This document shows positions 5,768 to 48,870 of a stretch of DNA of 64,000 nt, piece by piece (position 1 is the first letter of the stretch; the number at the start of each line of letters is the position of its first letter). Below the pieces are notes generated by a model that saw only the letters and a list, made by a program, of their open reading frames with translations, was not told where the DNA came from and did not search any database. A program made the position numbers and the translations under genes. The stretch covers positions 64,001 to 128,000 of the forward strand of contig CBDCOZ010000002.1 in the NCBI GenBank assembly GCA_965220085.1, in the 5' to 3' direction. The DNA comes from Candidatus Oxydemutatoraceae bacterium. GTDB taxonomy: Bacteria > Pseudomonadota > Gammaproteobacteria > Poriferisulfidales > Oxydemutatoraceae.

Positions 5768-5781
5768 CGCTTGCGTTGCGG

Positions 5782-18051: not shown

Positions 18052-19010
18052 TGCCGTACCCCGACATCAGGCCGGAGCATCATCGCGCCGAGGGCGACGG
18101 GCGTATCGTTAGCATCGCGCTGAACGGCGGCGCCGAGGGGGGCGCTGTGGCGCTTGGGCCGGAACTTTTGAACGGCGTTGGAAGGCAGTTTGAAAACTGG
18201 TATGCGACGCCCGCCGCGCCGGTGCGCGCGCATGAGAGCGGCGTGCGCTATGCGGCGAACGCGGACATGGCCTGCGGGTTTTTGCCGCTGCGGCGGGGGC
18301 AGCCGGTGGCCGAGACGACCGCGCGGTTTTATCGGGCGCTGTTTGCGATTCTCAAAGAGTGCGGCGACTTCGCGCCGCTTCGGGTCTGGCATTACCTGCC
18401 GGATTTGAGCGGCGCGGGCGAGCCGACGCCGTATCGGATGTTTTGCCGCGCGCGGGCGGCTGTCATCGGCGCGGTGAGTCCCGGGATGCTGTGCGCGGCG
18501 ACTGTCATCGGCAGCGGCGCGGAGCACGGCCTGCTGTATTTTCTGGGCGGCGAGCGGGGCGGGCGCGTGATTGATAACCCGCGCCAGACCAATCCGAGCG
18601 ATTATCCGGCGCAGTATGGCGACCCGCCGCCGCTGTTTGCGCGCGCCGTGTTGCACCGCAGCGCTGCTGCCTGCCGACTGTATATCTCAGGCACCGCGAG
18701 CATCGTCGGCCATCGCTCGTGCCATGCGGGCGACGCTGTGGCGCAACTGGATGAGGTGGCCGACAACCTGCAGGCGTTGCTGGCGGCTGCGGCTGAGGCG
18801 GAACCCGCGTTTGCCGACAAGACCTTGCGCGACCTGCGCAGCGCCCGCCTCTACCTGAAGCGCCGCGCGGATTATGACGCTGTTGCCCGCGCCTTGCCCG
18901 CCCGCTTCGGTGCGCTGCCTGACCTCAAAATCTTTCGCGGCGAGATCTGCCGCCCCGAGTTGCTGGCGGAGATGGAGGGGATGATTGAGCAGCGGCGGGA
19001 GGGGACGTGA
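18051..19010 (+). CDS. FkbO/Hyg5/XanB2-family chorismatase-like protein
   Basis: LRVWHY, NPRQ...YP.QYG..PP.FARA, ISGTASIVGH and ICRPELL.E.EG. Confidence 0.8.
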   Translation: MPYPDIRPEHHRAEGDGRIVSIALNGGAEGGAVALGPELLNGVGRQFENWYATPAAPVRAHESGVRYAANADMACGFLPLRRGQPVAETTARFYRALFAILKECGDFAPLRVWHYLPDLSGAGEPTPYRMFCRARAAVIGAVSPGMLCAATVIGSGAEHGLLYFLGGERGGRVIDNPRQTNPSDYPAQYGDPPPLFARAVLHRSAAACRLYISGTASIVGHRSCHAGDAVAQLDEVADNLQALLAAAAEAEPAFADKTLRDLRSARLYLKRRADYDAVARALPARFGALPDLKIFRGEICRPELLAEMEGMIEQRREGT

Positions 19011-19620
19011 TGCGGTGCGCGGATTATGACGCTGTTACCCGCGCCCTGCCCGCCCGCTTCGGTGCGCTGCCGAATCTTAAAATCTTTCGCGGCGAGATCT
19101 GCCGCCCCGAACTGCTGGCGGAGATGGAGGGGATGATTGAGTGCTGGCGGGAGGGGGCGTGATGCGGTGCGCGGATTATGACGCTGTTGCCCGCGCCTTG
19201 CCCGCCCGCTTCGGTGCGTTGCCGGAGCTTAAAACCTTTCGCGGCGAGATCTGCCGCCCCGAGTTGCTGGCGGAGATGGAGGGGATGATCGAGCAACGGC
19301 GGGATGTGATGCGGTGTGCGGATTATGACGCTGTTCCCCGCGCCTTGCCCGCCTGCTTCGGTGCGTTGCCGGAACTTAAAATCTTTCGCGGCGAGATCTG
19401 CCGCCCCGAACTGCTGGTGGAGATGGAAGGGATGATCGAGCACCGCCGGGAGGGGACGTGATGCGGTGCGCGGATTATGACGCTGTTACCCGCGCCTTGC
19501 CCGCCCGCTTCGGTGCGCTGCCGGAACTTAAAATCTTTCGCGGCGAGATCTGCCGCCCCGAACTGCTGGTGGAGATGGAAGGGATGATCGAGCACCGCCG
19601 GGAGGGGACGTGATGCGGTG
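18867..19620 (+). repeat. Five tandem ~150 bp copies of the chorismatase-like 3' end (first is the gene itself)
   Basis: gcggattatgacgctgtt at ~18867, 19019, 19171, 19318 and 19470. Confidence 0.95.
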
Positions 19621-19706
19621 CGGTGTGCGAGAGATTTGCGATGCCACATGCCATGACCGTTGTCACCGAGTTGGGGTGATGCGGTGCGCCCGACGGGGGG
19701 CTTGCG

Positions 19707-21456: not shown

Positions 21457-22917
21457 TCATTGCTTGTTATCCTTCGGGTATGCCAGCGCCAGACAGCGCT
21501 CGGCAATCACCTTGAGCTTTTTGCTGAGGGGGTTTTTGTTGGCAGGCACGCGGGCGGCGATGATGTTTGTTAGGCCCCGCACCCCGTCTCGCGTGTACCA
21601 CACGGCGATAATAATAAGCGCAAAGCCCAGCGCCGTATCCAGCAACGCGTCTGTCCACGGCCCTTCGTTGAGGGATAGCTGAAGCAGCCAATAACCGCCC
21701 GCAACCACGATGGCGCCGACATAGCCCGCTACGAGCGCGGTGAGCGCGACCCAAGCGCAGATGTTGCCGGTATGTTTTAGTATGCGTTTGGCGTTGCTTC
21801 CTTCGTCGTAGCCGCGGAGGGCTTTTTGGCGTTGTTTTAGCTCGGCTTTGGCAGCCTCTCTGTTGTCGTAAGCCGGAGTGTATTCCGGGTCTATCTTCAG
21901 GGCCTTGCTGTAGTCTTTGATGGCGTCTTGGTATCGTTGTATCCTCGCTTTGCAGGTGCCTCTGATGTTGTAATTCGAGGCATCTTTCGGGTCGCGCTCT
22001 AGGGCTTTGTCAAAGTCTTTGATGGCCGCTCGGTATTGTTTGAGCGCGGTGTTGGCGGTGCCTCTGTTGCTGTATGTTTCGGCATCGTCCGCTCCAAGCT
22101 CTATCGCTTTGTCAAAGTCTTTGACGGCTGCTCGGTATTGTTTTAGCACGGTGTTGACGGCGCCTCTGTTGCTGTACGTCTCGGCATCGTTCGGGTCAAA
22201 CTCTATCGCTTTGTCGAAGTCTTTGATGGCCGCTCGGTATTGTCTTAGACTGATTTTGATGAGGGCTCTGTTGTTGTAAGGCGCGGCATCTTGCAGACAA
22301 AGTTCTGTGGCTTTGTCGAAGTCTTTGATGGCTTCTTGGTATTGTTTTAGCCTGCTTTTGCAGGTGCCTCGGTTGCTGTATGCCGCGGCGTATTCCGGGT
22401 TGATCTCCAGAGCCTTGTCGTAGTCTTGGAGGGCTTCTTGGTATTGCCTTGTCGCGGCTTTGACAATGCCTCTGCAGTTGTACGCCTTGGCGTATTCGGG
22501 GTTAATCTCAATGGCTTTGTCGTAGTCTTGGATGGCTTCTTCGTATTGTTTTAGCGAGGCTTTGGAGGCGCCTCTGTTGATGCAGGCTGTGGCATCCTCC
22601 GGATCAATTTCTATGGCTTTGTCGAAGTCTTTGATGGCCTCTTGGTGCTGTTCCAGATCGGCTTTGGCGAGGCCTCTGTTGTTGTAAACCACGGCATTTT
22701 CCATGTTGATTTCCAGAGCGATGCCGTAGTCTGCGACGGCCTCTTGGTATTTTTTTTGCTCGGTTTTGTCGGTGCCTTTGCTGTTGTACGCCTTGGCGTT
22801 TTTCAGATTGATCTCTATGGCTTGATCGAAGAGTCGGATGGCCTCTTGGTACTGCTCCGCACCGTAGGCTTTGTTTCCCCGTTCAAAAAGAGCGCGGCTT
22901 TTTTCGTCTTTGAACAT
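21457..22917 (-). CDS. TPR-repeat protein with C-terminal 2 TM segments
   Basis: ~10 TPRs (AY.NRG..K..L.QY..AI.D(F/Y)DKAIE), no signal peptide, two hydrophobic helices at the C-terminus. Confidence 0.9.
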   Translation of the reverse strand: MFKDEKSRALFERGNKAYGAEQYQEAIRLFDQAIEINLKNAKAYNSKGTDKTEQKKYQEAVADYGIALEINMENAVVYNNRGLAKADLEQHQEAIKDFDKAIEIDPEDATACINRGASKASLKQYEEAIQDYDKAIEINPEYAKAYNCRGIVKAATRQYQEALQDYDKALEINPEYAAAYSNRGTCKSRLKQYQEAIKDFDKATELCLQDAAPYNNRALIKISLRQYRAAIKDFDKAIEFDPNDAETYSNRGAVNTVLKQYRAAVKDFDKAIELGADDAETYSNRGTANTALKQYRAAIKDFDKALERDPKDASNYNIRGTCKARIQRYQDAIKDYSKALKIDPEYTPAYDNREAAKAELKQRQKALRGYDEGSNAKRILKHTGNICAWVALTALVAGYVGAIVVAGGYWLLQLSLNEGPWTDALLDTALGFALIIIAVWYTRDGVRGLTNIIAARVPANKNPLSKKLKVIAERCLALAYPKDNKQ

Positions 22918-23218
22918 TTGAATACCTCCTGAGGTCAGCAGGCGCTACCGGCGGCGGTCGGCGCCGCGCATTTGTAGCGCGATTAATTATGGCGGCTAAT
23001 TGTACCACCAGTAATGTGCCTGTCGGCAAGCGCATATGACGAACGGCAAAAGTGAGGGTTTATAAGCCGTAGCGCCGCAATTTGCTTGGCGGCGAGTGGC
23101 CGCGGTCGCCTGCAAAAGTGAGATGTTATAGCCCGCCGCGATCGCCCAGATTGTCCGAAAAAGCGAGGGTGTCATGACCCGTAGTCGTGCAAGATGCCTG
23201 TTGCCGAGTGCCCAGATT

Positions 23219-23370
23219 ATCCGGACATCGTGATGAAGCGCGGAACCGCTGTGCGCTTTCGTGACTCCCGCCGCTTCGGTATCGTCCTGCGGTTGTCGGG
23301 ATGAAGACTTCGCCGGCGAGCATTTGCAGTGCGCAAGTTTTTATTGTTCCCGCTGCCAGCGCTAGTGAAG
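23219..23370 (+). pseudogene. Degenerate internally deleted mutM fragment
   Basis: ggacatcgtgatgaag...cgccgcttcggta...agtttttattgttcccgctgccagcgct matches mutM 19985-20060 and 20490-20520. Confidence 0.85.
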
Positions 23371-23424
23371 GGAGCGGTATCCGAGGCAGCCCGGCGCTTC
23401 GCTTAGTCGCACAGGCGAACTCTG

Positions 23425-24366
23425 CTACTCGCTATCCGCACCCATGTTGCGGCCAAATGTTTTTGCCCATGTTATTGGACGAGAAAAGTTGCCGGGCGGC
23501 TCTTTGAATGTGCTTTGAATCAAGGCCTCCGGTATGCCACTCGGTGCGAGGAAGGGGTAAAGCGCCGGATCGCTTTTGCCCCCGCTGCGCTCATAGTGTT
23601 TGGTCACAGCCCGCTTGGAGCGGATATCCTCGCGCAGCGCCAGAGCATTAGTTTTGTCTTTGTCCGCCGAATGCGCCCAAAGATAAAACGGCACCAGTAC
23701 CAAAGTAGCCACCACGATAAAGGGAAGGATGCTGTGGGAGCCTTGGTCTTTCATCATTGCAATGCCGACCCATGTTGCCACACCGTAGAGGATTATAGAA
23801 GCAATAATCAAACATATTATAGAGTAGCGATGATACTTGGCTTTCGATTTATGGTCTTCTTCCATCTCTTCCATAATGGCATCGTAATCTGATGTTTCGC
23901 CTATGGCTTTTTCTGCGGCGCTCGGCTTGTCTTGCGACTCTCCCTCAAACTTTTGTTGTTGCTCCTTTAACTGTTCTTCATATTTTTGCGTTATTTTTTT
24001 CTGTTTGTCTTGTGTCAATAATAGTGTTTGTGCTACCGCTCTGTTGTGGATTGCATCAGAGAAACCCGGGTTAAGCTCTAGGGCCTTATCGTAGTCTTGA
24101 ATGGCTTCTCTGTATTGCTCTAACGTAACTTTGGTGGCGCCTCTGTTGTTGTAAGCATCGGCATATTCCGGGTTAAGCTCTATGGCCTTATCGTAGTCTT
24201 GGATGGCCTCTTGGTATTGTTTTAGATCAGCTTTGGCAATGCCTCTGTTGTTGTAAGCCTCGGCATCTTCCGGGTTGAGCTCTATGACCTTATCGTAGTC
24301 TTGGATGGCTTCTCGGTATTGCTTTAGCTTGGTTTCGGCACCTTTCGGGTTAGGCTCTATGGTCAT
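23425..24366 (-). pseudogene. C-terminal part of a split TPR-coiled-coil-2TM gene
   Basis: TPRs plus the family tail ADKDK..ALALREDIRSKRA, with a frameshifted end. It lacks the family start/leader, which lies at 25187. Confidence 0.7.
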
Positions 24367-24458
24367 ATCGCAGTCTTGGATGGCTTTTTAGTATTGTTTC
24401 AGAAACGCTTTGGCGGCGACTCTGTTGTTGTAAGCATCGGCATATTCCGGGTTGGGCT

Positions 24459-25187
24459 CTAGGCTAGGGCCTTATCGTAGTCTTGAATGGTTTCTCTGTA
24501 TTGCTCTAACGTAACTTTGGTGGCGCCTCTGTTGTTGTAAGCATCGGCATATTCCGGGTTAAGTTGTATGGCCTTATCGTAGTCCCGGATGGCTTCTTGG
24601 TATTGTTTTAGCCTGGCTTTGGCGACCCCTCTGCTGTTGTAAGCCTCGGCATATTTTGGGTTGAGTTGTATGGCCTTATCGTAGTCTTGGATGGCTTCTT
24701 GGTGTTGTTTTAGCTTAGTTTTGGCAAGGCCCCTGTTGGTGTAAGTTTGGGCATTGTCCGGTTCAATCTCTATGGCTTTGTCGTAGTCTCGGATGGCATC
24801 TTGGTATTGTTCTAGCGCGGCTTTGGCGACCCCTCTGTTGTTGTAAGCATCGGCAAGTTTTGGGTTAATCTCTATGGCTTTGTCGTAGTCTCGGATGGCG
24901 TCTTGGTATTGTTCTAGCGCGGCTTTGGCGTTGCCTCTGTTGTTGTAAAGATAATGGAGCAAGGTGAGTTCCGGCTTAAGCGCCAAAGCTTTGTCGTAGT
25001 CTTGGATGGCTTCTTGGTATTGTTTTAGCGCGGCTTTGGCGTCGCCCCGGACACAGTAAGCATCGACATGTTTCGAGTTGCGCGTTATGACCGCATCAAG
25101 AAGTCCTATGACTTCTTGATACTGTCCTGCCATGTAGGCGTCGCATCCTTCCTTAAAAAGATCTTGGTTTGTTTTGTCGTTGGTCAT
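24459..25187 (-). pseudogene. N-terminal part of the split TPR gene
   Basis: Family start MTNDKT with the shared leader. The last TPR (24465-24560) duplicates 24080-24180, followed by a stop and frameshifted TPR debris. Confidence 0.7.
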
Positions 25188-25371
25188 TTGAATATCCTCC
25201 TGGTTAGCAGGCGTTGCCAGTGGCAACTAGGTAATACGATAATATGGTGGCATTGTACCACCAGTAATGTGTCTGTCGGCGACCGACTATGACGAACGGC
25301 AAAAGTGAGGTGTTATAACCCGCAGCCCCGCAATTTGCTTGGCTCCGAGCGCCCATGCCGACCCGCAAAAG

Positions 25372-25555
25372 TGAGGAAGAACGGAGCCGCTGTGCGCTTT
25401 CGTGACCCGCCGTTTCGGTACCGTCCTGTGGCTGCCGGGCGACCCGTTGCGGCACAAGTTGCCGGTGCCTTGGGCCCGAACCGCCGGGCGAAGGTTTCAC
25501 CGGCGAGCATTTGCGGTGCGCAAGTTTTTATTGTTCTCGCTGCCCGCATTGATGC
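25372..25555 (+). pseudogene. Degenerate internally deleted mutM fragment
   Basis: Translates in part to RRFGTVLWLPGDPLRHKL, with the same deletion junction as the other remnants. Confidence 0.85.
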
Positions 25556-25610
25556 GCGTAGCGGTATCCGAGGCAGCCCGGCACTTCGCTTAGCCGCGCA
25601 AGCGAATCTG

Positions 25611-26392
25611 CTACTTGTTGCCGCCCTTCTTGTCCTCGCTACGGCGGTCAAGCGTTTTCGCTACTGCTTGAACAACGTTGGCGGGTTGCTCTTTGGATGT
25701 GCCTAGAATCAAGGCCGCCGTGCCGCTGTGTGTGTGGTGGTCAAATAGGCGCAGCAATGCTTGATTGCTTTCGCCCTCACTACGTTCGTAGTATGTGGTC
25801 AAAATAGTCAAAGCCCGCTTGGAGCGGGCATCCTCGCGCAGTGCCAGAGCACGAGCTTTGTCTCTGTCCGCCGACCGCACCCGAAGATAAAGCGGCACCA
25901 GCGCCAAAGTGACCACCGTGATAAAGGGAATGATACCGTAGGAATCATAGGAGTCTATCGCAAGCAACCCGCCGACATAAAATATTGCTACCGCACCATA
26001 GAAAAATTTGGATGTGCGAATCAAAACATCAAGAGATTGGGAATGATGATTATCTTTTGATTTATAGTCTGCTTCCATCTCTTTCATGATGGCATCGTAA
26101 TCCAGCGCTTCATCTATAGTTTCTTTTGTGTCTTGCAATCTGGCTTGCAGTTCTTGCTCAAACTTCTGTTTTTGTTCCTTTGGCTGCTCTTCATATTTTT
26201 GCGTTATTTTTTCTGTTTGTCTTGTGTCCATAATAGTGTTTGTGCCACCGCTCTGTTGTGGATTGCATCAGAGAAACCCGGGTTAAGCTCTAAGGCTTTA
26301 TCGTAGTCTTGGATGGCTCCTTCGTACTGCCCTGCATCGCAGGCTTTGTTTCCTCGTTCAAAAAAATCTCGGCTTGTTTTGTCGTCGGCCAT
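25611..26392 (-). pseudogene. TPR-2TM family gene, collapsed to ~1 TPR and frameshifted near 26230
   Basis: ORFs 26204-26392 (MADDKTS...) and 25611-26231 (family C-terminus ...LDRRSEDKKGGNK) are in different frames. Confidence 0.75.
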
Positions 26393-27113
26393 TTGAATAC
26401 CCTCTCAGGTTAGCAGGTGCTGCCGGCGGTCAGCGCACCCAAGGCCCGGGCGCAAGCGGCCACCCTCTCGCTCGGCGCCACCCTGTGCGCCGGCCACAGA
26501 GGCGGGCGCAGGGCTTGCGGTTGTTCCGACGCTCTGGGCGGCTTGCGCTGGCGGCGCAGTACGCGCTCGGCGCGCTCGCACTCCGTGCGCAAAGCGGTTG
26601 GCTTGCGCCTCGGATGTGTTTCTGCCGGGGTCGCGCACCGGCCTCACACGGGCGGCGCGGGGGCAAAGTTCCATCGGTCGCTTGCGACCGTTGTAACTTT
26701 GGCCGCCCGTTCATCCGGCGCTTCATGTTTGTGCCACGGAGCGCTGCGGCGCTCAACTCGAAAAGCGCCACAGCATAGACTATGAAGGTTTAAAAAGTTT
26801 CGTTATGCGGTGTCGCTCGTTGTTCGCGCGATGTTACGGGTTGCCGCTCAACTGATCGGCAAAAATAATTTTGTGTCAGTCGAATAACTCTCCGGGTTCC
26901 GTTGCTCGGGTCCGACAACAAGCTTCGCATTGCAAAAAGCGGAGCAGAGCGGCAATGCTTTCGCATGCCACTCTACTCCGGTCGATATCTGAGGAGATGT
27001 ATCGAGTCTTCTGCTCTGTCACGGTGACGAAAGTGTCAACCCACCGGACAGTTTTGTTACGCGCCAGGTGTCAGAGAAACATAGCCCCCGGTGCATAGTT
27101 GCAACTTTTTCAA

Positions 27114-27395
27114 TCACTCCCCAGATCTTGACGCTCGCATTATACGCATACTTGCCCCGCGTGTCATTGTCGACACTTTTGCCGCTTCAGCCGCTTTAGC
27201 CGGTTGCAACAGTATGCGACTAGCCTCTGCCTCGCACTGTTGCAGTTGCACATAATTCATGTCTTCGTGGCAACCGAGATACTGATACACATTGCGCTTG
27301 CCCGAATACATCGGATCCTCCCACCCAACAGCATGACTCGCAACAACAAGCGCAGGCGCAAAAGTCAGGATGATTAAAAGCGCTTTTTTGATATC
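27114..27395 (-). CDS. Small putative secreted hypothetical protein (start codon doubtful)
   Basis: KKALLIILTFAPALVVASHA signal-like stretch, but ATC where ATG is expected; its 5' end is duplicated at ~28160-28215. Confidence 0.35.
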   Translation of the reverse strand, partial: DIKKALLIILTFAPALVVASHAVGWEDPMYSGKRNVYQYLGCHEDMNYVQLQQCEAEASRILLQPAKAAEAAKVSTMTRGASMRIMRASRSGE

Positions 27396-27405
27396 AATCT
27401 CTTCC

Positions 27406-27912
27406 TTAAGCAGGTGGGGTGGCCTCACCGTTTTTGTTGTAGCCCCAGCAGACGGCCTCGCCGGAAGGTTTCAGGGCGCAGGTGTGGAAGAACCCGGCAC
27501 TGATGGATTGGAAGCGACCGGCGGGCGGTGTGGCCTGACCGAGTCCGTTGTTGCCCCAGCAGACGGCCTTGCCGGAGGGTTTCAGGGCGCAGGTGTGGTC
27601 GCGCCCGGCACTGATGGATTGGAAGCGACCGGCGGGCGGTGTGGCCATACCGGCGACGTTCACGCCCCAGCAGACGGCCTCGCCGGAGGGTTTCAGGGCG
27701 CAGGTGTGGCCGAACCCGGCACTGATGGATTGGAAGCGACCGGCGTCCGCGGCGGCCTGACCGTATTCGTTATCGCCCCAGCAGACGGCCTCGCCGGAGC
27801 GTTTCAGGGCGCAGGTGTGGACGAGCGCGGCACTGATCTGCGCATAAAAGTAATTAGCCCATGCCGGCATCGCCCACAGCAAAAGCAATATTAAAAAAAA
27901 TAATTTTTTCAT
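27406..27912 (-). CDS. Secreted RCC1/BLIP-II-like repeat protein, 4 repeats
   Basis: Signal peptide plus 37-aa repeats (F)QSISAGxxHTCALKPSGEAVCWGxNxxG; GAGGAG RBS. Confidence 0.88.
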   Translation of the reverse strand: MKKLFFLILLLLWAMPAWANYFYAQISAALVHTCALKRSGEAVCWGDNEYGQAAADAGRFQSISAGFGHTCALKPSGEAVCWGVNVAGMATPPAGRFQSISAGRDHTCALKPSGKAVCWGNNGLGQATPPAGRFQSISAGFFHTCALKPSGEAVCWGYNKNGEATPPA

Positions 27913-28216
27913 AGTTAAGTCTCCTCAAGAATCGAATGTTTAAACTTGCCAGTTCTGTCCGCTGGCATTATACACAGATTAAAGGTGCGGCTTGTGCAGA
28001 CTGCTCACAAGCCGCACAGCTCGAAGGCGCGCGCTGCTTTGCGTTGTTTGAGCGCGTCGATGTTGGGTCGTGATCATGGGGACGGCGCAGGCGTGACCTC
28101 TGTGGGTGTGCTCGGCGAAGACGAATCTCATCGCAGGGGGCCTTCTAGGAATAGGCGCAAGCGCAGGCGCAAAAGTCAGGATGATTAAAAGCGCTTTTTT
28201 GATATCAATCTCTTCC

Positions 28217-29056
28217 TTAAGAAGGTGGGGTGGCCTGACCGTATTTGTTCCCGCCCCAGCAGTCGGCCTCGCCGGAGGGTTTCAGGGCGCAGGTGTGCCA
28301 CCTGCCGGCACTGATGGATTGGAAGCGACCGGCGGGCGGTGTGGCCTGACCGTGTTTGTTGTAGCCCCAGCAGACGGCCTCGCCGGAGCGTTTCAGGGCG
28401 CAGGTGTGCTGGGCACCGGCACTGATGGATTGGAAGCGACCGGCGGGCGGGCGGGCCTCACCGTATTGGTTGTGGCCCCAGCAGACGGCCTTGCCGGAAG
28501 GTTTGAGGGCGCAGGTGTGGTCGTACCCGGCACTGATGGATTGGAAGCGACCGGCGTGCGGCCTGGCCTTGCCGTTTTCGCGGTTGCCCCAGCAGACGGC
28601 CTCGCCGGAGCGTTTCAGGGCGCAGGTGTGGTCCCTGCCGGCACTGATGGATTGGAAGCGACCGGCGGGCGGTGTGTCCCCACCGTGTAAGGACCAGCCC
28701 CAGCAGACGGCCTCGCCGGAGGGTTTCAGGGCGCAGGTGTAGAGGAGCCCGACACTGATGGATTGGAAGCGACCGGCGGGCGGGCTGGCCTGATCGAGTA
28801 CGTTGTAGCCCCAGCAGACGGCCTCGCCGGAGGGTTTCAGGGCGCAGGTGTGGTCCCAGCCGGCACTGATGGATTGGAAGCGACCGGCGTCCGCGGCGGC
28901 CTCACCGTATTCGTTGTCGCCCCAGCAGACGGCCTCGCCGGAGCGTTTCAGGGCGCAGGTGTGGCCGGACCCGGCACTGATCTGCGCATAAAAGTAATTA
29001 GCCCATGCCGGCATCGCCCCCAGCAAAAGCAACATTAAAAAAAATAATTTTTTCAT
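28217..29056 (-). CDS. Secreted RCC1/BLIP-II-like beta-propeller, 7 repeats
   Basis: Same leader and flanks as 27406-27912; seven 111-bp repeats. Confidence 0.9.
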   Translation of the reverse strand: MKKLFFLMLLLLGAMPAWANYFYAQISAGSGHTCALKRSGEAVCWGDNEYGEAAADAGRFQSISAGWDHTCALKPSGEAVCWGYNVLDQASPPAGRFQSISVGLLYTCALKPSGEAVCWGWSLHGGDTPPAGRFQSISAGRDHTCALKRSGEAVCWGNRENGKARPHAGRFQSISAGYDHTCALKPSGKAVCWGHNQYGEARPPAGRFQSISAGAQHTCALKRSGEAVCWGYNKHGQATPPAGRFQSISAGRWHTCALKPSGEADCWGGNKYGQATPPS

Positions 29057-29566
29057 AGTTAAGTCTCCTCAAGAATCGAATGTTTAAACTTGCCAGTTCT
29101 GTCCGCTGGCATTCAAAGTTTGCAATGCTACAACAGGTCGGCGCTGCCTGTCAATGAGCGCGATTAGGCGCTGCGGCGCTTAAGTTGGAAAGCGCCACAG
29201 CACAGACAGATTAAAGGTGCGGCTTGTCCAGTCTACACACAAGCCGCATAGATCGAAGGCGATTATAGATCACCCTCGCCGCCGCAACCGGTCGGCTCGC
29301 AACCGGTGCGCGTTGCTTTGTGTTGCTCGATGCTTACGACTTGGCTCGGTTGTTCGCGCCGTGTTCGGTGTCGGCCAGCGCGCTGAAGGATTCGCAATGC
29401 GTGTGGTATGGGTGACCGCGTTGCTCGAACCAAGCGCTTGGCTTGTCGTCGTGGTCGGCCTGCGCATTGTCGGCCAACTTGCGCAAGGCAATTTTTCTCT
29501 GCACTTTGTGTTGGTAGCATGGTCGCTCATTGTGCCACCTGCAATGTGCCTGCTAGAGACTACCTA

Positions 29567-29765
29567 GACCATCTGGACATCGTGATGAAGAACGGAACCG
29601 CCATGCGCTTTCGTGACCTCGCCGGTTTGGTGCCGTCCTGTGGCTGCCGGGCGACCCGTTGCGGCACAAGTTGCCGGCGCCTTGGGCCCGAACCGCCGGG
29701 CGAAGGTTTCACCGGCGAGCATTTGCGGTGCGCAAGTTTTTATTGTTCCCGTTGCCAGCACTGAT
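29567..29765 (+). pseudogene. Degenerate internally deleted mutM fragment
   Basis: DHLDIVMKNGT.MRFRD...LGPEP.G..FTG.HL joined to ASFYCSRCQ*. Confidence 0.9.
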
Positions 29766-29822
29766 GCGCATAGCGGTATCCGAGGTGGCCCGGCGCTTCG
29801 CTTAGTCGCACAGGCGAATCTG

Positions 29823-31829
29823 CTACTTGTTGCCGCCCTTCTTGTCCTCGCTACGGCGGTCAAGCGTTTCCGCGACTGCTTGAACAACGCTCGCGGGTTG
29901 CTCTTTGGATGTGCCTAGAATCAAGGCCGGTGTGCCGCTGTGTGTGTGGTGGTCAAACAGGCGTAGCAACGCTTGATTGTTTTCGCCTCCCCTACGCCCG
30001 TAGTGTTCAGTCAAAATAGTCAACGCCCGTTTGGAGCGGATATCCTCACGCAGTGCCAGAGCACGAGCTTTGTCTTTGTCCGCCGAACGCACCCGAAGAT
30101 AAAGCGGCACCAGCGCCAAAGTGACCACTGTGATAAAGGGGAGAATATCGTAGGGCTCACAGGAGGGCTCACAGGATTTTATTTCAATCAACCCAAAGAC
30201 ATAAAATGCTACTACTAAACCATAAAAAAGTATGGATGTGCGCATTAAAACCTTGAGAGATTGGGAATGATGCTCATCTTTTGATTTATAGTCTGCTTCC
30301 ATCTCTTTCATAGTGGCATCGTAATCCAGCGCTTCATCTATAGTTTCTTTTGTGTCTTGCAATTTGGCTTGCAATTCTTTGTCAAACTTCTGTTGTTGAT
30401 CTCCCAGTTGTTCTTCATATTTTTGCGTTATTTTTTCCTGCTCAAATAGTGCCCGTGATGCCATCCGCCTGCTGTGCGCTTCGGCAAGGTTCGGGTTCAA
30501 TCTTATGGCTTTGTCATAGTCTTGGATGGCTTCTTGGTATTGTTCTAGGGCGGTTTTGATGATGCCTCTGTTGTTATAAGCATCGGCATTTTCTGGGTCC
30601 AGTTTTATGGCTTCATCGTAGTCTTGGATAGCCTCTTGGTATTGTCTTAGCTTAGCTTTGGCGAGGCCTCTGTTGCTGTAAGCCATGGCAAATTTCGGGT
30701 TCAGTTTTATGGCTTTATCGTAGTCTTGGATAGCCTCTTGGTATTGTTTTAGATTAGCCTTGGTATTGCCCCTGCCACTGTAAGCCATGGCATCTTTCGG
30801 GTTGAGTTCTATGGCCTTATCGTAGTCTTGGATAGCCTCTTGGTATTGCGTTAGCTTAGCTTTGATGGTGCCTCTGCTGTAGTAGGCGCCGGCATATTCC
30901 GGATTAAGTTCTATGGCTTTATTGCAGTCTTGGATAGCTTCTTGATATTGCGTTAGCTCAGCTTTAGCGCCCCCTCTGTTGACGTAAGCTTCGGCGAGTT
31001 CCGGGTCAAGCTCTATGACCTTATCGTAGTCTCGGATGGCTTCTTGGTATTGTTGTATCTCCGCTTTGGCGTTGCCTCTGCCGAAGTAAGCCTCGGCAAA
31101 TTCCGGACTCAGTTCTATGGCTTTATCGTAGTCTTGGACGGCTCCTAGGTGCTGGCTTAGCGCAGCTTTTGCGACACCCCTGTTGTAGTAAGCATCGGCA
31201 TTTTCCGGCTTAAGTTCTATGGCTTTATCGTAGTCTTGGATGGCTTCTTGGTATTGCTCTAGCGCGGCTTTGGCGTTGCCTCTGTTGTAGTAAGCGCCGG
31301 CATATTCCGGGTTGAGATTTAGGGTCTTATCGTAGTCTTGGATGGCATCTTGGTATTGCTCTAGTCCAGCTTTGGCGTTACCTCTGTTGTTGTAAGCAGC
31401 GGCATCTTCTGGATTAATCTCTATAGCCTTATTGTGGTCTTGGATGGCTTCCTGGTATTGCTCTAGCTTAACTTTGGCGTTACCTCTGTTGGTGTAAGCC
31501 ATGGCATATTCTGGGTTGAGCTCTATGGCCTTATCGCAGTCTTGAATGGCATCTTGGTACTGCTCTAACTTGCCTTTGGCAACACCTTTGCTGTTGTAAT
31601 ACATGGCATCTTTTGGGTTGATCTCTATGGCTTTATCGTAGTCTTTGATGGCTTCTTGGTGCTGTTGTAGCTCATCTTTGATGAGGCCCCTGTTGTAGTA
31701 AGCATCGGCATATTCTGGGTTAAGTTCTATGGCTTTGCTAAAAAGCTCTATGGCTTCTTGATACTGTCCTGCTTCGTAGGCAACGTATCCTTTCTTAAAA
31801 AAATCTTGGCTTGTTTTGTCGTTGGTCAT
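29823..31829 (-). CDS. TPR-coiled-coil-2TM protein (~13 TPRs)
   Basis: Regular 34-aa TPRs and the conserved family tail. Confidence 0.92.
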   Translation of the reverse strand: MTNDKTSQDFFKKGYVAYEAGQYQEAIELFSKAIELNPEYADAYYNRGLIKDELQQHQEAIKDYDKAIEINPKDAMYYNSKGVAKGKLEQYQDAIQDCDKAIELNPEYAMAYTNRGNAKVKLEQYQEAIQDHNKAIEINPEDAAAYNNRGNAKAGLEQYQDAIQDYDKTLNLNPEYAGAYYNRGNAKAALEQYQEAIQDYDKAIELKPENADAYYNRGVAKAALSQHLGAVQDYDKAIELSPEFAEAYFGRGNAKAEIQQYQEAIRDYDKVIELDPELAEAYVNRGGAKAELTQYQEAIQDCNKAIELNPEYAGAYYSRGTIKAKLTQYQEAIQDYDKAIELNPKDAMAYSGRGNTKANLKQYQEAIQDYDKAIKLNPKFAMAYSNRGLAKAKLRQYQEAIQDYDEAIKLDPENADAYNNRGIIKTALEQYQEAIQDYDKAIRLNPNLAEAHSRRMASRALFEQEKITQKYEEQLGDQQQKFDKELQAKLQDTKETIDEALDYDATMKEMEADYKSKDEHHSQSLKVLMRTSILFYGLVVAFYVFGLIEIKSCEPSCEPYDILPFITVVTLALVPLYLRVRSADKDKARALALREDIRSKRALTILTEHYGRRGGENNQALLRLFDHHTHSGTPALILGTSKEQPASVVQAVAETLDRRSEDKKGGNK

Positions 31830-31945
31830 TTGAATACCCTCTCAGGTTAGCAGGTGCTACCGGCGGCCAGCATAGCACGTTTGTAGCACGATAGTATGGT
31901 GGCAATTGTACCACCTGCAATGTGCCCATCGCGACCGCCTACGCC

Positions 31946-31990
31946 CATCCGGACATCGTGATGAAGAACGGAATCGCTGTGCTTTCGCGA
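31946..31990 (+). pseudogene. Short mutM-derived remnant
   Basis: catccggacatcgtgatgaagaacggaatcgctgtgctttcgcgac. Confidence 0.7.
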
Positions 31991-32045
31991 CGAAAAATAA
32001 GACATATAGCTGGGGTGACTCGCTTAGTCGCACAAGTGAACTCCG

Positions 32046-33338
32046 CTACTTGCTATCGCCCTTCTTGTCCTCGCTACGGCGGTCAAGCGTTTCCGCTACC
32101 GCTTGAACAACGCTGGTGGGTTGCTCTTTGGATGTGCCCAGAATCAAGGCCGCTGTGCTACTGTGTGTGTGGTGGTCAAACAGGCGTAGCAATGCTTGGT
32201 TGCTTTCGCCCGCACTACGCTCGTAGTATTTAGTCAAAATGGTCAAAGCCCGCTTGGAGCGAATATCCTCGCGCAGTGCCAGAGCACGAGCTTTATCTCT
32301 GTCTGCGGAACGCACCCACAGATAAAAAGGCACCAGTATCAAAGTAGCCATTGTGATAAAGGGGAGGATGATACTATAGGAGTCGGTGGGGGTTACAAGC
32401 TTGTCAATTGCAATCATTTCATAGCCTAGGTATGCCACTACCCCATAGGTAGCAAGAGACATGAAAATGGAGAGTGCAAGAACCGCAAGATACCCCCGAC
32501 TTTTATTTTTATAGTCTCTTTCCATCTCTTCCAGAGTATCCTCATAATGTAGTAGCTCCTTAAAATTTTCTTCTTTATCTAATAATCTAGCTTGCAGCTC
32601 TTTGTCAAACTCCTCCTGTTGCTCCTCCAGCTGCTTTTCATATTTTTGCGTTATTTTTTTCTGCTCAAATAGTGCCCGTGATGCCATCCGCCTGCTGTGC
32701 GCTTCGGCAAGGTTCGGGTTCAGTTCTATGGCTTTGTCATAATCTTGGATGGCTTCTTGGTATTGGTTTAGGGCGGTTTTGATGATGCCTCTGTTGCCGT
32801 AAGCTTCGGCATTTTCTGGGTTCAGTTTTATGGCCTCATCGTAGTCTTGGATAGCCTCTCGGTATTGTTTTAGCTTAGCTTTGGCGAGGCCTCTGTTGCT
32901 GTAAGCACCGGCAAATTTCGGGTTCAGTTTTATGGCTTCATCGTAGTCTTGAATGGCTTCTTGGTATTGCTCTAGCTTATCTTTGCTAGTGCCTCTGTTG
33001 TTATAAGCCTTGGCATCTTCCGGGATGAGCTCTATGGTTTTATCGTAGTCTTGAATGGCTTCTTGGTATTGCTCCAGCCCGGCTTTGGCGAGGCCTCTGT
33101 TGCCGTAAGCTTCGGCATATTCCGGCTTAAGTTCTATGGCTTTATCGTAGTCTTGGATGGCTTCTTGGTATTGGTTTAGGTTAGCTTTGGCAACGCCTCT
33201 GTTGTTGTAAGCCTCGGCGAATTCTGGATCAAACTCTATGACCTTGCTAAAAAGCTCTATGGCTTCTTGATATTGTCCTGCGTCGTAGGCGACGCGTCCT
33301 CCCTCAAAAAAATCTTGGCTTGTTTCGTCGTCGCCCAT
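32046..33338 (-). CDS. TPR-coiled-coil-2TM protein (~6 TPRs)
   Basis: Paralog of 29823-31829 with a different first TM segment and loop. Confidence 0.92.
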   Translation of the reverse strand: MGDDETSQDFFEGGRVAYDAGQYQEAIELFSKVIEFDPEFAEAYNNRGVAKANLNQYQEAIQDYDKAIELKPEYAEAYGNRGLAKAGLEQYQEAIQDYDKTIELIPEDAKAYNNRGTSKDKLEQYQEAIQDYDEAIKLNPKFAGAYSNRGLAKAKLKQYREAIQDYDEAIKLNPENAEAYGNRGIIKTALNQYQEAIQDYDKAIELNPNLAEAHSRRMASRALFEQKKITQKYEKQLEEQQEEFDKELQARLLDKEENFKELLHYEDTLEEMERDYKNKSRGYLAVLALSIFMSLATYGVVAYLGYEMIAIDKLVTPTDSYSIILPFITMATLILVPFYLWVRSADRDKARALALREDIRSKRALTILTKYYERSAGESNQALLRLFDHHTHSSTAALILGTSKEQPTSVVQAVAETLDRRSEDKKGDSK

Positions 33339-33482
33339 TTGAATGTCCTCTCAGGTTAGCAGGTGTTGCCAGTGGCAACTAGGCAACACGATAGTATGGT
33401 GGCATTGTACCACCCGCAACATGCCCGCCGCGACCACCGCAAGCAAACACAAGCAACCCGCGTGCTTGAAAATAAATAAGCA

Positions 33483-33547
33483 CCGCAATGCGCCCACCGC
33501 GCACCCACCCGCAATGCGCCCGCCGCGCACCCACCCGCAATGCGTCA
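33483..33547. repeat. ~26 bp tandem repeat (2.5 copies)
   Basis: ccgcaatgcgccc(a/g)ccgcgcaccca repeated. Confidence 0.75.
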
Positions 33548-33708
33548 GGCCGCAACGTGCTTCCCGCAATGCCAAGCCCATTCCGAACCCTGCGCCCGCC
33601 GAAATGCCTTTGCGTATGCGGGCAACGCCAGCGTTATCGCGGCCTTTCTGAAAAGCGGCGGGCTTTCCTATATAATCGGGTCTTTATATGCGTAAGCAGG
33701 CACAAGCA

Positions 33709-35013
33709 ATGAACAGAGTCGTCTTATTTTTAGGTTGCATGGCGGTTTCGGTCGTTACCGCCGTTGTCTTTTTGTCAAAGGAATCGCACACGGTGCGCGC
33801 CAACGAAGCGGGCGGGTTGCCGTTGAAGGAGTTGCGGATGTTTAGCGACATCTACGCGCGGGTCAAACACAGTTATGTCGATGAGGTGGAAGACGAGGAA
33901 TTGATACGGGGCGCGATTGACGGGATGTTGGCGACGCTGGATCCCTACTCGGTGTACCTGAAGAAGCAGGCGCACGAGAATCTGCGGATTGGCACGACCG
34001 GCAAGTTCGGCGGGCTTGGCATCGTGGTGGATACCAAAGACGATTTCATCGAGGTCGTCTCGCCGATAGACGACACGCCGGCGAGCCGCGCCGGTCTGGA
34101 GGCGGGCGATATGATTGTGCGCATTGATGAGACGGTGACGAAGGGGATGGAGTTGTCCGAGGCGGTCGATATGATGCGCGGGGTGATTGGCACCAAAGTC
34201 AAGTTGCTGATAAGGCGCGAGGGCCTTGAGCAGCCGTTTGAGGCGGAACTGACGCGGGCGGAGATTAAGGTCAAGAGCGCGCGCGGGGTGTTGCTTGAGC
34301 CGGGCTATGGCTATGTGCGCCTCACGCGTTTTCAAACCAACACGAGCGCCGATATGGGAGCGCTGATTGCGAAGCTGACGAAGGAGAACAAGCAACCCCT
34401 GCAGGGGCTGATTCTGGATTTGCGCAACAACCCGGGCGGCTTGCTGGCCGCTGCGGTGCAAGTGGTGGATTATTTTGTCGGCAAAGGCGAGTTGGTGGTT
34501 TATACCAAAGGGCGGCGCGCGGACAGCATGCACGAGTATAAGTCGGCATCGCCGGATGCGTCCGGCGGGGTGCCGTTGGTCGTGCTGATAAACACCGGCT
34601 CGGCATCGGCGTCGGAGATTGTCTCGGGGGCGTTGCAGGATTTGCATCGCGCGACCGTGATGGGCGAGAAGTCTTACGGCAAGGGGTCGGTGCAGACGGT
34701 TCATCCGTTGCAGGATGAGACCGCGCTGAAGCTGACGACGGCGAAGTACTACACCCCCGCCGGCAAAGTGATACACGACAATGGCGTATCGCCCAATGTC
34801 GAGTCGGAGTTTGAGGAATTGAGCGACGAGGATGTGGCCGCGCGCAAGGAACTCAATATCTATAAGGATATGCTGAAGTGGCTTTCTTATGACTCGCAGG
34901 TGAAAACCGCTTTGATCAAACTGAAAGAGTTGGCGATGGGTACGGTGCCGCCTCAGCCGCCGGCAGCGCAACCGGCACAGCCGAACCAAGCGCCACCGCC
35001 GCCCGCGCCCTGA
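33709..35013 (+). CDS. ctpA: Carboxyl-terminal processing protease (S41A, PDZ)
   Basis: LDPYSVYL, GKFGGLGI, DLRNNPGGLL, SASASEIV.GALQD, KSYGKGSVQ and TTAKYYTP. Start 33688 or 33709. Confidence 0.93.
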   Translation: MNRVVLFLGCMAVSVVTAVVFLSKESHTVRANEAGGLPLKELRMFSDIYARVKHSYVDEVEDEELIRGAIDGMLATLDPYSVYLKKQAHENLRIGTTGKFGGLGIVVDTKDDFIEVVSPIDDTPASRAGLEAGDMIVRIDETVTKGMELSEAVDMMRGVIGTKVKLLIRREGLEQPFEAELTRAEIKVKSARGVLLEPGYGYVRLTRFQTNTSADMGALIAKLTKENKQPLQGLILDLRNNPGGLLAAAVQVVDYFVGKGELVVYTKGRRADSMHEYKSASPDASGGVPLVVLINTGSASASEIVSGALQDLHRATVMGEKSYGKGSVQTVHPLQDETALKLTTAKYYTPAGKVIHDNGVSPNVESEFEELSDEDVAARKELNIYKDMLKWLSYDSQVKTALIKLKELAMGTVPPQPPAAQPAQPNQAPPPPAP

Positions 35014-35185
35014 CCGCCAACCGCGCCTGACCGCAAATCGCGCCGTAATTATCCGGCTTGCGCTGACTGCACTCCCCCTTGCGCTAACTATTGCTCCCCC
35101 TTGCGGGGGAGCCGGCGTAGCTTCTTCTCTGCCCAGACAATAAAAGTTACGCAACCTTGCGAGAGCAGGGCCGGGCAGAAAAAGT

Positions 35186-36790
35186 TTATTCCTCGTTCTT
35201 CGCCTGTTTTTTCCGGATTTTCTCCATGAGAAGTTTGGCTTCCGCTTGTGCTGTCGCCAAGTCGTTAGCAGACAATAATCTGGCATCATCATCTCGGTAT
35301 TTCACTGATTGCTCGTACCCGTTCCCCGCCGCAATAGAATGCCAGATATATGCCTCCCGGTGGTTTTGCGCAACGCCCTTTCCGTTGTGATACATCACGC
35401 CGAGATTAAATTGCGCCTTGGCGTATCCCTGATTGGCGGCAAGTCGAAACCACTTCCCCGCTTCTACAGAATCTTGTTTAACGCCCTGCCCGTTGTGATA
35501 CATCAAGCCAAGGTTATATTGCGCAATGGCGTATTCTTGTTGGGCAGCGCGCCGATACCATCTCTCTGCTTCTGCATAATCCTGCTTAATGCCTCTGCCA
35601 TTGTAATACGTTGAACCGAGATTGTTTTGTGCGCTGGCGACTCCTTGTTCGGCGGCATGTTGAAACCACTTCCCTGCTTCTGCGTAATCTTGTTTAACGC
35701 CTATGCCATTGGCATACATCACGCCAAGATTATGTTGCGCAATGGCATATTCTTGTTGGGCAGCGCACCGATACCATTTCTCTGCTTCTGCATAATCCTG
35801 CTGAATGCCTTGCCCGCTTCCATACATCAAGCCAAGATTAAATTGCGCTCTGGCGTCTCCCTGATTGGCAGCGCACTGAAGCCACTTTACCGCTTTTGCA
35901 TAATCCTGCTTAACGCCCCGACCATAGTAATACATTATGCCAAGACCAAATTGCGCCTTGGCGTCTTCCCGTTCGGCGGCAAGTTGAAACCACTTTGCCG
36001 CTTCTGCATAGTCCTGCTGAATGTCCCGACCGTAGTAATACATCATGCCAAGATTAAATTGCGCTTTGGCATGCCCCCGATTGGCAGCGTACTGAAACCA
36101 CTTTGCCGCTTCTGCATAATCCTGCTGAATGCCCCGACCATAGTAATACATCTCGCCAAGATTAAATTGTGCTTTGATATCCTTCGCCTTCTCCTTTTCT
36201 TCGGTCTCGGCGAAAGTGTTATCTGCCGAGGGCGTCTCAGTTGTGGATTTCACTCCGCCATTCTCTTTACTGGCGGCAGCCGCATCAGGCGCCAAATCTT
36301 TTGCGGTTGATTCTTCATCCGCTTTCCCCTTCTTAAGGGAGGTGGTGGCCGCAGGTTCCCGTTCCGACGTAGAGTCTTGCGGGTAGATCTCTATGCCTTC
36401 ACCTCCAATTTTCTTCACTCGGCTGGTGAGCTCGCTTATTTCCGGCTCCAAATCTTTTGCGGTTAATCCTTCATCTACTTTCCCCTTCTTAAGGGAGGTG
36501 GTTGCCGCAGGTTCTGATTCCGACGCGGGTTGTTGCTTGTAGAGTTTTAGGCCTGCGATGCTCTTCAGCCGGTTGATGCTCTCGCTTATTTCCTCGGAGA
36601 ATTTGTTTACGAACCAGACGAATGCCCCGACAATTATGCCGACGTAAACAACGGTTGGAGACATAATGGAGTTCACCAGTTTGAGGAATGTATCTTGGAT
36701 TCCGATGACGTCGGCGAGCCAAAGAGAAAGGAAAGCGATGCCGACAAAAACAGCGACGAAAATAATGGCAGTGATAATTTTTTTGCGCAT
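35186..36790 (-). CDS. Sel1-like repeat protein with N-terminal 2TM anchor
   Basis: ~8 SLRs (AQFNLG.MY..G.G..QDY.EA.KW); the linker has an in-frame duplication (EPAATTSLKKGK twice). Confidence 0.92.
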   Translation of the reverse strand: MRKKIITAIIFVAVFVGIAFLSLWLADVIGIQDTFLKLVNSIMSPTVVYVGIIVGAFVWFVNKFSEEISESINRLKSIAGLKLYKQQPASESEPAATTSLKKGKVDEGLTAKDLEPEISELTSRVKKIGGEGIEIYPQDSTSEREPAATTSLKKGKADEESTAKDLAPDAAAASKENGGVKSTTETPSADNTFAETEEKEKAKDIKAQFNLGEMYYYGRGIQQDYAEAAKWFQYAANRGHAKAQFNLGMMYYYGRDIQQDYAEAAKWFQLAAEREDAKAQFGLGIMYYYGRGVKQDYAKAVKWLQCAANQGDARAQFNLGLMYGSGQGIQQDYAEAEKWYRCAAQQEYAIAQHNLGVMYANGIGVKQDYAEAGKWFQHAAEQGVASAQNNLGSTYYNGRGIKQDYAEAERWYRRAAQQEYAIAQYNLGLMYHNGQGVKQDSVEAGKWFRLAANQGYAKAQFNLGVMYHNGKGVAQNHREAYIWHSIAAGNGYEQSVKYRDDDARLLSANDLATAQAEAKLLMEKIRKKQAKNEE

Positions 36791-36825
36791 TGGTTTTTTT
36801 CTCTGACAGGATTCTATCACCTTTC

Positions 36826-36985
36826 CGTGGCGCACCCCCTCACCGACTCGCTGCGCTCGCCGACTCTCCCACGAGGGGAGAGTAAGCATGTCCTGCGCAA
36901 TCCGTAGCGCACCCCCTCACCGACTCGCTGCGCTCGCCGACTCCCCCACGAGGGGAGAGTAAGCATGTCCTGCGCAATCCGCTGC
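36826..36985. repeat. Two 77-bp BoxC-like palindromic repeats
   Basis: cgcaccccctcaccgactcgctgcgctcgccgactc(t/c)cccacgaggggagagtaagc, the same unit as the 48341 array. Confidence 0.85.
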
Positions 36986-36995
36986 GAGCGTTGAG

Positions 36996-48340: not shown

Positions 48341-48870
48341 GCCCCCTCACCGACCCGCTGCGCTCGCCGACTCTCCCGCGAGGGGAGAGTAAGCGTGTCC
48401 CGCGCAATCCGTGGCGCACCCCCTCACCGACTCGCTGCGCTCGCCGACTTTCCCACGAGGGGAGAGTAAGCATGTCCCGCGCAATCCGTGGCGCACCCCC
48501 TCACCGACTCGCTGCGCTCGCCGACTTTCCCGCGAGGGGAGAGTAAGCATGTCCCGCGCAATCCGTGGCGCACCCCCTCACCGACTCGCTGCGCTCGCCG
48601 ACTCTCCCGCGAGGGGAGAGTAAGCATGTCCCGCGCAATCCGTGGCGCACCCCCTCACCGACTCGCTGCGCTCGCCGACTCTCCCGCGAGGGGAGAGTAA
48701 GCGTGTCCCGCGCAATCCGTGGCGCACCCCCTCACCGACTCGCTGCGCTCGCCGACTCTCCCGCGAGGGGAGAGTAAGCGTGTCCCGCGCAATCCGTGGC
48801 GCATCCCCTCACCGACTCGCTGCGCTCGCCGACTCTCCCGCGAGGGGAGAGTAAGCGTGTCCCGCGCAAT
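48341..48870. repeat. Seven tandem 77-bp BoxC-like palindromic repeats
   Basis: cccctcaccgac at ~48343, 48419, 48496, 48573, 48650, 48727 and 48804; ctctccc/gggagag stem. Confidence 0.95.

Follow-up and report, generated by a model that had tools for sequence, protein, structure and literature searches.

Near-identical blade DNA and hypervariable loop codons in a tandem pair of RCC1/BLIP-II-like propeller genes of a Candidatus Oxydemutatoraceae bacterium

How can the DNA of a protein repeat stay nearly unchanged, even at its synonymous sites, when a few codons in every copy are scrambled? This question is raised by two neighbouring genes, here called A and B, on contig CBDCOZ010000002.1 of a Candidatus Oxydemutatoraceae bacterium (assembly GCA_965220085.1), in a stretch of 64,000 nucleotides that we refer to as the window (positions 64,001 to 128,000 of the contig). 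An earlier note, made from the letters of this stretch, had described the genes as RCC1/BLIP-II propellers with frozen framework DNA and hypervariable loops, and had considered a diversity-generating retroelement (DGR) as a possible source of the loop variation. We compared the repeats with each other and with homologues, predicted the structures of the proteins and searched the genome, which was assembled to 2.49 Mb in three contigs with 99% completeness. The best reading of A and B is that of a highly repetitive RCC1/BLIP-II propeller evolving like the highly-conserved-repeat receptors of fungi, and concerted evolution together with diversifying selection on one face of the propeller is in our opinion the probable, though far from certain, cause of the pattern. 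This pattern matches a known route to new binding surfaces and not a new mutation machine.

Repeat anatomy, codon variation and predicted fold

Both proteins consist of a leader followed by repeats and of nothing else (279 residues in A and 168 in B), with seven repeats in A and four in B (Table 1). Every repeat has exactly 37 codons, with the anchor spacing constant at 37, and Tandem Repeats Finder (TRF) reported a period of 111 at 27436-27837 and 28227-28981, so that the anchors and TRF together confirm the 11 repeats of 111 bp that had been described. The two framework blocks quoted earlier as near-invariant were recovered as well: a 26-mer was present in nine exact copies and a 17-mer in ten exact copies and one with a single mismatch, with none expected in shuffled sequences. 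Likewise, the dipeptides before HTC and the loops after WG that had been listed agree with the translation. The RCC1_2 family (PF13540) matched gene A in seven stretches (E = 3.4e-72, 237.1 bits) and gene B in four (E = 3.8e-41, 138.3 bits), at a curated cut-off of 22. The leader of A has Lys-Lys, then a hydrophobic run and an Ala-x-Ala-type end; inspection of the translation by eye suggests a Sec signal peptide in A and B, which is consistent with the secretion that had been proposed. In the structural model described below this leader was helical, with low confidence (predicted local distance difference test, pLDDT, of 58-63 for residues 1-20).

Table 1. Features of the propeller locus and reverse transcriptase genes of the genome; positions are those of the window unless a contig is named.
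Feature	Positions	Strand	Basis or remark
Gene A, secreted RCC1_2/BLIP-II-like propeller (putative export), 7 blades, 279 aa	28217-29056	minus	Open reading frame (ORF), PF13540, AlphaFold, Foldseek
Gene B, paralogue of A, 4 blades, 168 aa, same leader	27406-27912	minus	ORF, PF13540
Repeat array of A, blades A1-A7, 7 x 111 bp	28220-28996	minus	HTC anchor register, TRF
Repeat array of B, blades B1-B4, 4 x 111 bp	27409-27852	minus	HTC anchor register, TRF
Leader of A, first 20 codons, signal-peptide-like	28997-29056	minus	Translation
Leader of B	27853-27912	minus	2/60 nt differ from leader of A, both non-synonymous
57-nt 5' untranslated segment of A	29057-29113	minus	100% identical to that of B
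57-nt 5' untranslated segment of B	27913-27969	minus	100% identical to that of A
59 nt past the stop of A, relic of a downstream small gene start	28158-28216	minus	100% identical to the stretch after B
59 nt past the stop of B, start of a downstream small ORF	27347-27405	minus	Sequence comparison
Sigma-70-like promoter match, 10/12, consensus only	29125-29154	minus	Upstream of A; this stretch is missing upstream of B
Downstream 104-aa ORF, signal-peptide-like start, no Pfam family	27114-27428	minus	ORF; paralogous copies on contig C1
Retron-type reverse transcriptase, PADLOC RT_VI, 8.4e-64	contig C3 1925765-1926349		Profile match
Retron-type reverse transcriptase, PADLOC RT_IX, 1.4e-117	contig C1 170091-170651		Profile match

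To compare loops and framework, the hypervariable codons were defined from homologues of other organisms and not from A and B, and circularity was thereby avoided. Among 22 homologues with at least six ungapped 37-residue repeats, positions 10, 11, 27, 29 and 30 of the blade had the highest within-protein entropy (2.3-2.5 bits), and the entropy profile of these homologues correlated with that of the A/B repeats (Spearman rho 0.67, p = 5e-6). When codons 6-37 of the 11 repeats were aligned, 40 of the 96 nucleotides were variable. Of the 15 nucleotides in the five hypervariable codons 14 were variable, but of the 45 nucleotides that make up codons 12-26 only 6 were (Fisher p = 2.9e-8), a clustering that exceeds chance. 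According to Nei-Gojobori counts over the 11 repeats, the proportions of non-synonymous (pN) and synonymous (pS) differences were 0.035 and 0.047 in the core framework (codons 12-26), as compared to 0.595 and 0.259 in the loop codons, which are near saturation and have a pN/pS of 2.3. The pN of the loops is 12.7 times the pS of the framework; the divergence check that had been proposed for the repeats thus found framework synonymous sites far less diverged than loop residues, and the contrast between a frozen framework and hypervariable loops holds.

The frozen synonymous sites are not a simple result of codon bias, because codons other than the GC-rich choice are fixed as well: AGT is found in all 11 repeats, and CAA as well as GGT in 9 of 9, in genes with a G+C content at third codon positions of 0.76-0.79. 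At the four-fold degenerate sites of codons for invariant residues, the mean pairwise diversity was 0.026. Overall, the mean identity between repeats was 0.83 outside the loops and 0.12 within them. In the hypervariable codons the diversity was 0.71 at the first, 0.60 at the second and 0.30 at the third codon position, and this lower third-position diversity fits selection on the amino acid, and not a local mutation process blind to codon position.

The AlphaFold2 model of A, based on an alignment of 38 sequences, reached a pLDDT of 95.0 and a predicted template modelling (TM) score of 0.89, and contained 21 strands after the leader, corresponding to seven blades of three strands. A Foldseek search with this model placed BLIP-II chains at ranks one to five (3qhy_B: E = 6.2e-22, TM scores 0.79 and 0.81, 30% identity), followed by UVR8, plant CR4 and RCC1, and a phmmer search of the Protein Data Bank (PDB) sequences also returned BLIP-II first (E = 4.4e-29). 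Pfam, PDB sequence match, AlphaFold and Foldseek all agree on the RCC1/BLIP-II identity given in the earlier note.

In the model, strands 1 and 2 are joined by a turn that holds the variable dipeptide, for example at residues 67-68 between the strands formed by residues 62-65 and 69-73, and the three other variable sites come right after strand 3. Because the strands form an antiparallel meander, the strand 1-2 turn and the sites after strand 3 would lie on one face of the ring, and the little-varying turn between strands 2 and 3 would occupy the opposite face. All five variable residues of each blade are thus predicted to share one ring face, as the earlier note had expected, with the proviso that the assignment follows from the strand topology of a predicted model and is not a map of coordinates. 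When A was aligned with BLIP-II, the dipeptide fell over aromatic loop residues, and site 30 over the Trp that follows the first WG.

Each blade also carries two cysteines that do not vary in the family (in the 22 homologues the entropy is 0 at both positions). The cysteine pairs of A align with the per-blade pair of PpCR4 (E = 1.5e-21, four blades of the alignment), and in the CR4 ectodomain such a pair is described as forming one disulfide per blade (bioRxiv 10.1101/2020.08.10.245050). By analogy, the conserved pair fits a protein located outside the cytoplasm.

Signs of exchange between repeats, and the alternatives

Several features of the locus carry signs of exchange between the repeats. 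The flanks of A and B are identical over the segments listed in Table 1. Between blades A1 and B1, 6 of 96 nucleotides are different, four of them in codons 9-11, and B4 carries the unusual tail codons of A7. The first and the last blades are the most divergent. All four gametes were found at 19 of 66 informative site pairs, to which recurrent mutation could also contribute, and at non-loop positions the nearest neighbour of each of the 11 repeats was another repeat of A or B. Identical flanks, divergent end blades, four gametes and clustering within the own genome would together be the signature of concerted evolution. The repeat shuffling suggested in the earlier note is consequently in keeping with the signs of exchange, including blade numbers of seven and four, and exchange that is still ongoing appears plausible from them.

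We propose that A and B, in tandem, encode exported BLIP-II-like propellers that are braced by disulfides and would act as binding proteins. Unequal crossing-over and gene conversion, both within and between the arrays, would keep the scaffold DNA near-identical, and the same exchange would alter the number of blades. Selection at the protein level would in turn hold the five loop residues of each blade different, such that the seven-blade protein would display about 35 diversified residues as a single binding surface. Its target may be a molecule of a host, a phage or a competitor.

The alternative that survives best, although we hold it to be unlikely, is a one-off recent amplification of both genes from a single blade, followed by a burst of positive selection on the loops and by no continuing exchange. 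A very low framework pS of 0.047 is what such an event would leave behind, and young tandem duplications are abundant in the tandem-repeat table of the window; moreover, propellers, those of the RCC1/BLIP-II type included, are described as being continuously amplified from single blades (PMC9218822). Yet this history requires replacement in the loops to have outrun synonymous change about 13-fold, and it is opposed by the site pairs with four gametes. Repeated exchange fits better both with the divergent end blades and with flanks of A and B that are 100% identical although A1 and B1 have different loops.

A number of observations weigh against concerted evolution with diversifying selection. 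The pN/pS of 2.3 is based on just five codons in 11 paralogous repeats. Neither a close orthologue nor a second strain was found: the best identities were 50% among the relatives (with a match in 4 of 40), 54% among genome contigs and 49% among metagenome contigs, and selection was consequently deduced from paralogous repeats and not from positional orthologues. The assignment of the variable residues to one face depends on how the strands are connected in a predicted model, and the aligned loop residues of BLIP-II are binding hot spots on our own assumption. In old and diverged homologues the loop pN is similar to the framework pS, and over long times there may simply be no constraint on the loop sites. 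Loop variants at a frequency of at least 10% were absent from the unitigs within the arrays in the one informative run, which is weak evidence because contigs drop rare variants. The read data covered were unitigs of two runs and about 1 in 100 of a Hi-C run, together with three reads of the raw run.

One relative (G008) carries, at about 416000-419500 of its contig 1, two tandem paralogues of 769 residues that are identical at 698 of 768 aligned residues. In each of them an N-terminal domain is joined to a collagen-like Gly-x-y stretch and to seven RCC1_2 blades of 40 residues. The excess of change in the loops of this pair was weak, and it belongs with the points just listed: 4 of 35 hypervariable codons had changed as compared to 12 of 249 other codons, and the non-synonymous divergence (dN) was 0.047 in the loops and 0.022 elsewhere.

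Another alternative is that no adaptive diversification has occurred, with unconstrained loops on a scaffold kept by purifying selection and homogenisation. Every member of the family varies at the same sites, and in the diverged homologues a loop pN of 0.51-0.67 stands next to a framework pS of up to 0.60, as this proposal would have it. But homogenisation that wipes out synonymous differences ought to wipe out neutral loop differences too, and in A and B the identity is 12% in the loops as compared to 83% elsewhere. The deficit at third codon positions and the pN/pS of 2.3 also indicate selection at the level of the residue, and we consider the absence of adaptive diversification very improbable.

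Even less probable, in our judgement, is an assembly artefact in which the arrays, or gene B, were mis-joined or collapsed from a repeat that differs between strains. The unitig depth over the 5' end of B (27793-27946) was 2.7-6, as compared to 16-230 in other bins and to 90-152 over the corresponding stretch of A (run X1), and one unitig had 26 unplaced letters between framework pieces; both observations also count among the points against our preferred reading. The low depth reflects either a rarity of the B-specific leader variants in the sample or an artefact of the unitigs. Unitigs with no differences cover B-specific sequence at 27366-27462 and 27512-27633 and A-specific sequence at 28423-28554 and 28935-29113, both genes are intact, in frame and made of exact 111-bp multiples, and the assembly has few contigs and high completeness, all of which argue for a correct assembly.

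The last alternative is targeted hypermutation of the loops by a DGR or another programmed mutator. The earlier note had pointed to 17 of 22 dipeptide codons of the type NNC, a count that we could reproduce, and the change is limited to short windows, as it is in the targets of DGRs, in which a few codons for the binding surface are the ones that vary. However, C ended 65% of the codons both in the hypervariable set (36 of 55) and among the rest (192 of 297), so the hint of AAC templating did not hold, and the codon at site 29 was NNA in 10 of 11 repeats. The 2.49-Mb genome had only two matches to RVT_1, both of which best matched retron reverse transcriptase models (Table 1). These two genes are short, are neighboured by small ORFs and lie on other contigs than the propeller genes; they are probably defence retrons that are unrelated to the propellers. 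A template repeat was not found when A and B were compared with the whole genome by blastn (word size 7): the search gave 151 rows, 111 of them outside the locus, of which none exceeded 56 nt in length, and the top match (82% identity over 49 nt) fell in the leader. By protein search, the genome had no propeller copies beyond A and B. The search that the earlier note had proposed, for further copies, an A-rich template and a DGR-type reverse transcriptase, thus came back empty for the 2.49-Mb genome. DGR targets also have a different fold. With no DGR-type reverse transcriptase, no template and no adenine pattern beyond codon bias, we rejected a DGR origin. The DGR-like look is codon bias, and the locus is therefore not to be counted as a new mutator system. 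Since, in addition, variability at the third codon position is half that at the first and second and the unitigs show no loop variants, a programmed mutator of any kind is hardly credible here.

The comparison with TALE proteins and antibodies was kept as a functional metaphor only. A TALE-like reader was rejected: the predicted fold of A is an all-beta closed propeller behind a putative export leader, as opposed to an alpha-helical superhelix with one repeat per base.

The four-blade copy and related propellers

Gene B had been suggested to be an oligomeric variant of the propeller. A homodimer model of mature B obtained a score of 0.45, as compared to 0.02 for the best of three controls; among proteins of solved structure, 21 of 30 pairs of one chain attained this mark, and none of 23 single chains did. 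Between runs, the contact agreement was at least 98% and the pLDDT of the partner at least 87. In the model, blade 1 of one copy contacts blade 4 of the other, which would give a closed ring of eight blades. The predicted model thus supports a homodimer of B, and the oligomeric part of the earlier suggestion stands at the level of this model; B may be a functional protein, a copy in decay or a donor of blades to A. The score may, however, reflect likeness to solved dimers of engineered four-blade WD40 proteins (PDB 6R5Y; PMC6805158). In these WRAP constructs, four-blade fragments of a seven-blade parent are described as forming dimeric eight-blade propellers (Afanasieva et al., 2019; PMC6805158). 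They resemble the homodimer model of B, but they are engineered WD40 fragments and not natural RCC1-type genes.

In a word-based search for homologues, 8000 candidates were scored and 1937 had an E value of 0.001 or lower; the best 120 of these 1937 had 31-55% identity. A protein from Mesostigma was among the matches listed. The nearest genomic relatives, with at most 54% identity, were mostly metagenome-assembled genomes labelled Dehalococcoidia, Tepidiformaceae, Acidimicrobiia, Poriferisodalis and Spongiisociaceae. In nine homologues the core pS ranged from 0.09 to 0.60 and the loop pN from 0.51 to 0.67. From these comparisons A and B appear to be the most homogenised end of a family continuum, with one Acidimicrobiales protein close behind.

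The closest structural counterpart, BLIP-II of Streptomyces exfoliatus (PDB 1jtd and 3qhy), is, as A is predicted to be, a secreted, stand-alone protein of seven blades and about 270 residues, with blades of about 37-40 residues, each described as three-stranded (PMC6121496). Its own blades are mutually diverged, however, and in the alignment they lack the cysteine pair. BLIP-II binds and inhibits class A beta-lactamases, and nothing in A or B points to beta-lactamase binding.

CRINKLY4 (CR4/ACR4; PDB 7a0j and 7a0k) has, as is predicted for A, an extracellular seven-bladed RCC1/BLIP-II-like propeller, and like A it carries two cysteines per blade. Unlike A and B, it has an N-terminal strand that fills the pore, a domain rich in cysteines, a membrane span and a kinase, and its blades are not near-identical. 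The blade disulfides are called unique to CR4 in a preprint (bioRxiv 10.1101/2020.08.10.245050), and the paper on the origin of CR4 (PMC4617170) contains no mention of bacteria. The bacterial two-cysteine blades may represent a wider family that includes CR4.

In its manner of evolution, the pair most resembles the WD40 repeats encoded by het-d and het-e (HNWD family) of Podospora anserina. Paoletti et al. (PMC1805685) describe these repeats as near-identical in DNA, with a few diversifying codons on the interaction face of the propeller, a variable repeat number and exchange both within and between paralogues. A and B similarly have near-identical repeats, a few codons with a non-synonymous excess, signs of exchange and blade numbers of seven and four. 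In contrast to A and B, the HNWD proteins are eukaryotic and intracellular, have four-stranded WD40 blades and are fused to NACHT signalling domains, and repeat-induced point mutation may add mutations to their genes. A and B are small, stand-alone, bacterial and, by their leader, putatively exported, with no fusion to a NOD-like receptor (NLR) or STAND module, and the fungal case is the one with population data.

RCC1/BLIP-II proteins are reported to be the third largest group, at 10%, of highly repetitive propellers, and to be mostly bacterial (Pereira and Lupas, 2022; PMC9218822). Paralogues that differ in blade number alone have been reported as well (PMC9218822). What was measured here is the contrast between loops and scaffold; the word "hypervariable" is absent from the main text of PMC9218822 and of PMC6805158. 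Close relatives of A and B may be present in the supplement of the former. Our literature search returned no prior account of hypervariable blade repeats in bacterial RCC1 proteins, and at the level of search results nothing on this family was found in the literature on sponge symbionts and eukaryotic-like RCC1 proteins.

Genomic surroundings and meaning of the locus

The propeller genes are embedded in a run of repeat-protein genes (21457-26231, 29823-33338 and 35186-36889), all on the minus strand. Five ORFs around A and B match tetratricopeptide repeat (TPR) families and have, as judged by eye, paralogous C-terminal tails; a Sel1-repeat protein follows. The ORF at 25611-26231 shares the tail of its TPR neighbours and has no Pfam match.

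Sequences that flank A and B (26443-27409, 27970-28171 and 29089-29261) recur on contig C1 with 87-97% identity. The copies in the 24000-40000 stretch of that contig bracket an ORF for a cysteine-rich, lipoprotein-like protein of 58 residues (10778-10954 of the stretch), and a similar leader is present on other ORFs of contig C1. Different genes for secreted proteins seem to draw on a common set of promoter/leader and downstream modules. A dispersed repeat of about 35-40 bp lies at 28130-28172, and the segment 28100-28216 had 44 blastn-short matches spread over all three contigs. This repeat accounts for the loose ends and joints of unitigs at 28132-28171, and because it coincides with the joints at 28016, 28171 and nearby, these were not read as structural variants. 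Other young tandem arrays in the window lie at 5778-7347, 8954-10271, 18865-19622, 48342-48870 and 50149-50904; examples are units of 113 bp in 13.9 copies (91% matches), of 77 bp in 6.9 copies (98%) and of 251 bp in 3 copies (99%).

A much bolder proposal would treat secreted propellers with two cysteines in 37-residue blades as a binder repertoire that works by recombination, free of a reverse transcriptase, and that spans several phyla in sponge-type microbiomes. Loop "codes" would be shuffled within and between tandem genes, and copies of the four-blade type would dimerise, to give new specificities against hosts, phages or competitors, an extracellular equivalent in bacteria of the repeat system of fungal NLRs. 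We regard this as a speculation that is improbable in its full extent.

The main points of note are the contrast between loops and scaffold, the natural pair of seven and four blades, and a family that extends across phyla. The pair is a clean natural case, outside the WD40 family, of scaffold homogenisation combined with loop diversification, and gene B is a natural four-blade gene with which the oligomeric assembly of propellers can be tested. Should diversifying selection act on the loop face, A and B would be natural binding scaffolds that are able to evolve, in a bacterium that is uncultured and of the symbiont type, and the targets of these propellers would indicate what such bacteria must recognise outside the cell.

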